Source: Escherichia coli O157:H7 (GTDB lineage: Bacteria > Pseudomonadota > Gammaproteobacteria > Enterobacterales > Enterobacteriaceae). From it: a stretch of DNA of 64,000 bases. The position numbers and the translations under genes were made by a program. The DNA lies in NCBI RefSeq assembly GCF_013167455.1, contig NZ_CP038328.1; one strand, written 5' to 3'. Positions 6,263 through 6,662 of the stretch are shown here, in pieces. Every line of letters starts with the position of its first letter. Position 1 is the first letter of the stretch. The notes below the pieces were generated by a model. That model searched no databases. It was not told the DNA's origin and was given only the letters and a program-made list of their open reading frames with translations.

Positions 6263-6662
6263 TTATAACCTTATCCTTGTAACAAGTACATAATCATATT
6301 TAATGTGAATATATGTTCAACATCTTTAAAGATTATACAGGTAGAAATATTTCATTGAACATTAAATAGACTAAACTTTAAGATTATATTTATATGCAAA
6401 TATTTGATATTTTCATTATATTGATATCAATTTTCTATGTATTCAAAAGAGTATAAGTGCATGACTTTGCTGCGCCAGGGGGCGAGTCAGAATACGAGAT
6501 GGTTTATTAATAGAACAAGTTATATGTATATCTAAAATTAAATTGTTGAACATAACTCCTTTTGCTATTGGCGTTATGTTCAACCCAGTCAAATGTTATT
6601 TAATATAATGCGTGACTGTTGCATAAGTTAATTTAAACATTTTGAGCAAATTTTTCATCTGG

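Follow-up and report, generated by a model that had tools for sequence, protein, structure and literature searches.

The agaI-yraH spacer of Escherichia coli O157:H7 as a probable H-NS-silenced promoter island of the accessory yraHIJK fimbrial operon

The 400-bp noncoding spacer between agaI and yraH of E. coli O157:H7 combines an extreme AT content with a high density of promoter-like sites, a stable hairpin behind agaI, and an accessory distribution among E. coli genomes, and its K-12 copy binds both H-NS and RNA polymerase. In our judgment, the spacer is very probably the H-NS-silenced "promoter island" regulatory region of the cryptic accessory operon yraHIJK, a region whose distal third probably carries the terminator of the aga operon. 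Its AT-rich, H-NS-bound character is already known from the K-12 promoter-island, H-NS ChIP, and SELEX lists and is typical of the class. The new elements are (i) the top promoter-site density of the spacer within the window (the whole 64,000-nucleotide stretch analysed, contig NZ_CP038328.1, to which all positions refer unless another locus is named); (ii) the hairpin as a probable aga terminator; (iii) the location of the spacer within the accessory yra segment; and (iv) a negative result on phase variation. The value of the analysis lies mostly in the careful annotation of a textbook AT-rich, H-NS-bound control region before a cryptic acquired fimbrial operon. The practical relevance is limited because yraK is broken by an IS in the O157:H7 strain.

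Base composition, promoter-like sites, and curvature

The 2 genes flanking the spacer both lie on the minus strand, and "upstream" of the operon therefore means higher window coordinates (Table 1). The spacer is bounded by the yraH start codon, which reads CAT on the plus strand (6260-6262), and by the agaI stop codon, which reads TTA (6663-6665). It is 100% identical among O157:H7 genomes and ~98% identical to its K-12 copy, from which it differs at 9 of 400 positions. In the E. coli genome search, the spacer had one copy per genome (median 1 place), which rules it out as a repeated or mobile element.

Table 1. Coordinates of the agaI-yraH spacer, its flanking genes, and the features located within it.
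Feature	Position	Strand	Remarks
agaI-yraH intergenic spacer	6263..6662		400 bp, 26.75% GC; counterpart in O157:H7 of the K-12 "promoter island" agaI/yraH
yraH, major fimbrial subunit gene, first of yraHIJK	5678..6262	-	194 aa, 11 aa differ from K-12
yraI	4903-5598	-	
yraJ	ends at 2358	-	
agaI, pseudogene	6663..7418	-	amber codon 72; last 31 nt (6663-6693) within the yra-specific variable segment
Shine-Dalgarno-like AAGG	6269..6272	-	6 nt before the yraH ATG; read from the sequence
Proximal promoter-like site TTGAAC-16-TATGAT	6293..6320	-	-35 at 6320..6315, -10 at 6298..6293; predicted only; leader ~24 nt if used
Published predicted sigma-70 promoter TTGATA-17-TCAAAT	6402..6430	-	-35 at 6430..6425, -10 at 6407..6402; PMC3946193 Table 3
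Three perfect TATAAT -10 hexamers with weak -35 partners	6420..6415, 6388..6383, 6337..6332	-	sigma-70 scan
8-mer ATGTTCAA / TTGAACAT, four copies	6313+, 6355-, 6546-, 6576+ (6313..6583)		two copies form the hairpin stem
GC-rich islet, contains CGCCAGGGGGCG	6458..6502		45 bp, 57.8% GC; splits the AT-rich region
Hairpin, perfect 12-bp stem (6545-6556 / 6573-6584)	6545..6584	-	followed by AAUUUAAUUUUAG; ~79 nt past the agaI stop codon; probable aga terminator
Strongest predicted intrinsic bend of the spacer	6642..6656		above the 99.7th percentile of the window; adjoins the agaI stop codon

The earlier note on this DNA had described a very AT-rich 400-bp region upstream of yraH, and this is borne out: the region is exactly the spacer, and its GC content of 26.75% (~73% A+T) compares with 50.1% for the whole window. 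Stretches of 400 bp with a GC content this low make up 0.28% of all such stretches in the window, and the lowest 400-bp value found anywhere in it is 25.75%, in the stretch starting at 6244. The same note had called the region rich in A/T tracts, a description that did not hold beyond base composition, given that A/T homopolymer runs of at least 4 numbered 7 in the spacer versus 9.1 +/- 2.6 in mononucleotide shuffles. TpA steps were not enriched either (52 versus 53.6 expected). The GC content is uneven along the spacer, being 20.0% at 6263-6457, 57.8% at 6458-6502, and 26.3% at 6503-6662. The GC-rich islet in the middle had no significant fold compared with shuffles, and no second copy of it was found within the 64-kb window. 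Elsewhere in the window, other low-GC stretches have 400-bp minima of 26% (25858-27572), 29% (27839-28600), 34% (20760-21160), and 32% (42469-43040) GC; that at 25858-27572 is comparable to the yraH spacer and far longer.

With a relaxed sigma-70 consensus, 32 sites were counted in the spacer (yraH strand, 15; opposite strand, 17), whereas the average is 4.7 per 400 bp, and the spacer is the densest stretch of the 64-kb window. Promoter islands are defined by promoter-like sites that are exceptionally dense on either strand over at least 300 bp, and the spacer fits this definition. A strict promoter scan returned 2 sites, compared with 3.2 expected from composition-matched shuffles; because this is no enrichment, the "island" follows from AT-richness and carries no separate signal. 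The published promoter was positioned in the window by reading the sequence. It falls inside the stretch (6400-6435) that the earlier note had quoted as an example, and its leader would be ~130 nt if used. The TTGAAC contained in the copies of the 8-mer ATGTTCAA/TTGAACAT also serves as a -35-like hexamer. On the yraH strand, the candidate promoters thus include the proximal site, the 3 TATAAT hexamers, and the published site.

DNA curvature prediction, which had been proposed in the earlier note, was run with our own script implementing the Bolshoy-Trifonov wedge model with the parameters attributed to Bolshoy et al. 1991. By this calculation, 2 strong bends are predicted in the spacer, one at ~6410-6424, on the published promoter, and the other at ~6642-6656.

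Comparison of 5 alleles showed that the proximal promoter-like site is invariant and that variation clusters on the published promoter, where 7 of the 22 variable columns lie within 40 columns (~6401-6445), a clustering that is at most marginally significant by a rough estimate. The -35 hexamer of the published promoter is TTGATA or TTCATA and its -10 hexamer is TCAAAT, TAGAAT, or TAAAAT in these alleles; B1-like strains have TTCATA...TAGAAT or TAAAAT replacing TTGATA...TCAAAT. In addition, a paper on super-shedder O157 named yraH among the genes with altered upstream sequence.

The accessory yra segment and the hairpin behind agaI

Of 5,426 complete E. coli genomes, 5,269 (97%) carry agaI, 3,281 carry yraH, and 3,374 carry the spacer; the segment made up of yraHIJK and the spacer is present in ~61%. 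In genomes that lack yra, rsmI is followed by 92 bp and then by agaI (for example, locus L004, 5909-6000). The variable segment begins just past rsmI and takes in the last 31 nt of agaI, ending at window 6693. These 31 nt (6663-6693) have a GC content of 19% and encode a different AgaI C-terminus, which is ...WLHNHFTCVIDEMCRR in yra-less strains and ...WLHSNFICLINT in yra-bearing strains. As the variable segment spans the spacer together with the 31 nt of agaI, the spacer is itself part of the accessory yra DNA. The yra genes have a GC content of 44-47%, compared with 49-50% for the aga genes, and the spacer and yraHIJK together thus show the association with horizontally acquired, lower-GC genes that is part of the promoter-island definition.

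Outside E. coli, a YraH scan covering one genome per species revealed a single relative, an Ewingella locus with 45% identity, which is likewise preceded by a long spacer that is AT-rich in part. This locus was too distant to align, and cross-species footprinting of the spacer was abandoned. A 2.2-kb contig labelled Xenorhabdus szentirmaii (NZ_NIBV01000010.1) encodes the C-terminal part of a YraH with 92% amino acid identity to that of the window, beyond which lie the start of a second ORF and unrelated sequence; the contig probably reflects contamination of the Xenorhabdus assembly with E. coli DNA.

Both the gene upstream of the spacer and the operon downstream of it are damaged in the O157:H7 strain. 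Codon 72 of agaI (7203-7205) is CAG in K-12 and TAG here, and this amber codon, which RefSeq also flags as an internal stop, makes agaI a pseudogene. A 1,310-bp IS of the IS3 family (annotated as IS1203 in PV15-279) lies at 713-2022 inside yraK, leaving the remnants 298-715 and 2023-2347 with 349 bp missing; yraJ is not interrupted, unlike in PV15-279, where the same IS is located within yraJ in the opposite orientation. The yra operon has therefore been damaged differently between O157:H7 lineages. In other genomes, IS1 has inserted into the spacer and DNA next to it is deleted (L003, ~4039-4800; L008, 791-1500). An IS1-adjacent deletion spans the spacer to garP in strain TUM9757, and another takes yraH, yraI, and part of yraJ in strain E2. 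In Shigella, yra pseudogenes are present. Further along the window, the agaA/nagA-like ORF at 12063-13217 is uninterrupted (384 aa), whereas the reference annotation of PV15-279 gives it as frameshifted; the window and PV15-279 differ in length by 4 bases over 11.2 kb.

The hairpin in the agaI-proximal part of the spacer has a folding energy of -18.1 kcal/mol (z = -4.4), and none of 200 shuffles folded as well. Its stem is invariant in the 5 alleles, with a single variable base in the loop. Because agaI and yraH are co-directional, the hairpin is most simply explained as the terminator of the aga operon, and from its sequence it probably terminates agaS-kbaY-agaBCDI. Such a terminator would insulate yra from the aga operon.

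H-NS binding, silencing, and alternative readings

Converted to window coordinates, the K-12 promoter island at this locus spans ~6222-6546, with one end at the hairpin and the other a short way into yraH; the conversion uses an offset of ~1,977 bp, which we take to be that between 2 MG1655 sequence versions. The K-12 agaI/yraH spacer is entry 3285165_325, one of 78 "promoter islands" mapped on the basis of PlatProm (Panyukov & Ozoline 2013, PMC3661553 Table 1). This island is associated with predicted foreign genes and is occupied by H-NS in 2 strains according to the ChIP-chip data sets of Kahramanoglou and Oshima (PMC3661553). Genomic SELEX, an in vitro method, placed a sigma-70 holoenzyme site as well as an H-NS site in the K-12 agaI>yraH spacer (PMC3946193 Table 3).

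According to reviews citing Korea et al. 2010, the cryptic chaperone-usher (CU) operons of K-12, including yra, are weakly expressed in the laboratory, and many CU fimbriae are repressed by H-NS. Expression of yraH rises along with that of other cryptic fimbrial genes when BolA is overexpressed, and it does so in one data set on stress as well. In the accessible literature, no direct measurement of yraH expression in an hns mutant was found. The 10-bp high-affinity H-NS motif TCGATAAATT, attributed to Lang et al. 2007, has 0 sites at 2 or fewer mismatches in the spacer (1.5 expected), and nucleation via this motif is therefore not supported. The earlier note had called the region typical of H-NS-silenced cryptic chaperone-usher operons. 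The binding part of that claim stands, since H-NS binding is published for the near-identical K-12 copy; as to repression, we infer that H-NS represses yraH directly, in O157:H7 as well.

A mechanism consistent with these data can be proposed as follows. The spacer would have come, or would be kept, as part of an accessory segment of lower GC content that includes yraHIJK, and its extreme AT content would give rise to the 2 predicted bends and, on either strand, to many sigma-70 promoter-like sites that overlap one another. RNA polymerase would be able to bind, and an H-NS coat would hold productive transcription of yraH very low in the laboratory (xenogeneic silencing). Expression of yraH would then require relief of silencing, and the cryptic fimbrial operons of K-12 are indeed seen to rise jointly in some conditions. 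In the agaI-proximal third, the hairpin and its U-rich tail would stop co-directional aga transcripts ahead of yraH.

It is unlikely, in our view, that the spacer is neutral AT-rich filler of a decaying acquired operon, bound by H-NS as any AT-rich DNA would be and devoid of evolved regulation. Composition alone accounts for the promoter-site density, and decay is visible in the IS-broken yraK of this strain, in the spacers of other strains hit by IS1 insertion and deletion, and in the Shigella pseudogenes. Constraint on the spacer is also not demonstrable, because its divergence from K-12 (2.25%) is only slightly under that of third codon positions in neighbouring genes (2.7-7.7%). However, the spacer is kept at an identity of at least 95% in 3,373 of the 3,374 genomes carrying it, the hairpin and the proximal promoter-like site do not vary in the 5 alleles, and the operon is described in the literature as functional once expressed and as transcriptionally inducible. 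A further regulatory role of the hairpin or of the repeated 8-mer is a decidedly long shot: a leaky or conditional hairpin might couple read-through of aga transcription, induced by N-acetylgalactosamine (a mucin sugar), to yraHIJK, or the 4 copies of ATGTTCAA/TTGAACAT might be operators for some regulator. The gene order and the marginally non-random motif count, 4 copies being reached in 3.2% of shuffles, are what speaks for these readings, and if the first were true, aga read-through across the H-NS-coated spacer would tie sugar sensing to fimbriation. That the spacer conceals an sRNA or a small protein is highly improbable. Promoter-like sites are numerous in both directions, and a 32-aa ORF (6437-6535, plus strand) and a 49-aa ORF (6443-6592, minus strand) can be read; however, no Shine-Dalgarno sequence lies in the 20 nt before either of them, one starts with TTG, and neither has a Pfam match. 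The best Rfam 15 hits (E = 0.64 and 0.99) are far under the gathering scores, the putative leaders and the GC-rich islet fold at z values of -0.1 to -0.9 with only the terminator-like hairpin reaching significance, and the RefSeq genomes annotate no feature under 6263-6662. The search for short ORFs and sRNA signals that the earlier note had suggested thus yielded no sRNA and no credible small ORF.

The earlier note had also likened the region to phase-variable promoters while seeing no obvious inverted repeats. Inverted repeats are in fact present: besides the 4 copies of the 8-mer, a perfect 11-bp pair, TATGTTCAACA (6312-6322) and TGTTGAACATA (6544-6554), flanks 221 bp with predicted promoters. 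The longest perfect inverted repeat of the spacer is the hairpin stem, and perfect inverted repeats of at least 12 nt were seen in only 3.4% of shuffles, which is marginally unusual. E. coli has trans-acting recombinases of the FimB/FimE family, and the 221-bp promoter segment could in principle be flipped by such a recombinase in the manner of fimS. We nevertheless attach only the slightest probability to an invertible switch, on the basis of a genome comparison in which a query with 6312-6554 inverted, plus flanks, was run against the 5,426 E. coli genomes at a coverage of at least 80%. The inverted form occurred in none of the 5,263 matching genomes, a result that largely rules out this switch. 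The native order was collinear in 3,349 of 3,374 genomes, and 2 of the non-collinear genomes were inspected, both of which proved to be IS1-mediated deletions. Moreover, the interval from rsmI to agaI holds only yraK, yraJ, yraI, yraH, and an IS transposase, with no recombinase gene, and one of the repeat arms simply coincides with the terminator-like hairpin stem. Many chaperone-usher operons use Dam/Lrp or slipped-strand control, and for yraH the probability of Pap-like (Dam/Lrp) or slipped-strand phase variation is practically nil. GATC is absent from 6263-6662, compared with a window average of ~1.8 per 400 bp, the longest homopolymer is 5 nt, the sole simple repeat is (AT)3, and no papI/papB-like gene is located nearby; with no GATC and no repeat tract, both mechanisms are refuted at the sequence level. 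Phase variation of the promoter by the known mechanisms is therefore not supported.

Comparison with known systems

The spacer resembles fimS of type 1 fimbriae in being an AT-rich promoter segment of a few hundred bp that precedes a major-subunit gene and is flanked by short inverted repeats. It differs from fimS in that it was never seen inverted, has no adjacent recombinase gene, and has one repeat arm built into a hairpin. The hairpin in turn resembles intrinsic (Rho-independent) terminators in its stability, its place 79 nt past a stop codon, and the U-rich tail behind it on the correct strand; it differs from them in its AU-rich stem, its loop of 10-16 nt, and a U tract broken by AA. Because of these noncanonical traits, and because a consensus terminator scan did not call the hairpin at 6545..6584, the terminator role is offered as a probable one.

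The closest counterpart is the K-12 promoter island agaI/yraH, which is the same locus with 9 of 400 positions changed and has a high promoter-site density. The O157:H7 allele differs from it in being flanked by an agaI pseudogene and an operon with an IS-broken yraK, and the binding data are those of K-12. The upstream regions of 8 other K-12 fimbrial operons are included in the same promoter-island list (PMC3661553). Like yra, the other cryptic CU operons of K-12 (yadN, sfmA, elfA/ycbQ, ybgD, yehD, yfcV, and ecpR) are listed islands with H-NS binding, are weakly expressed in the laboratory, and are co-induced with yra; their upstream regions are not expected to resemble that of yra in sequence. 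By contrast with these operons, yra has no linked regulator gene and lies co-directionally behind a sugar operon.
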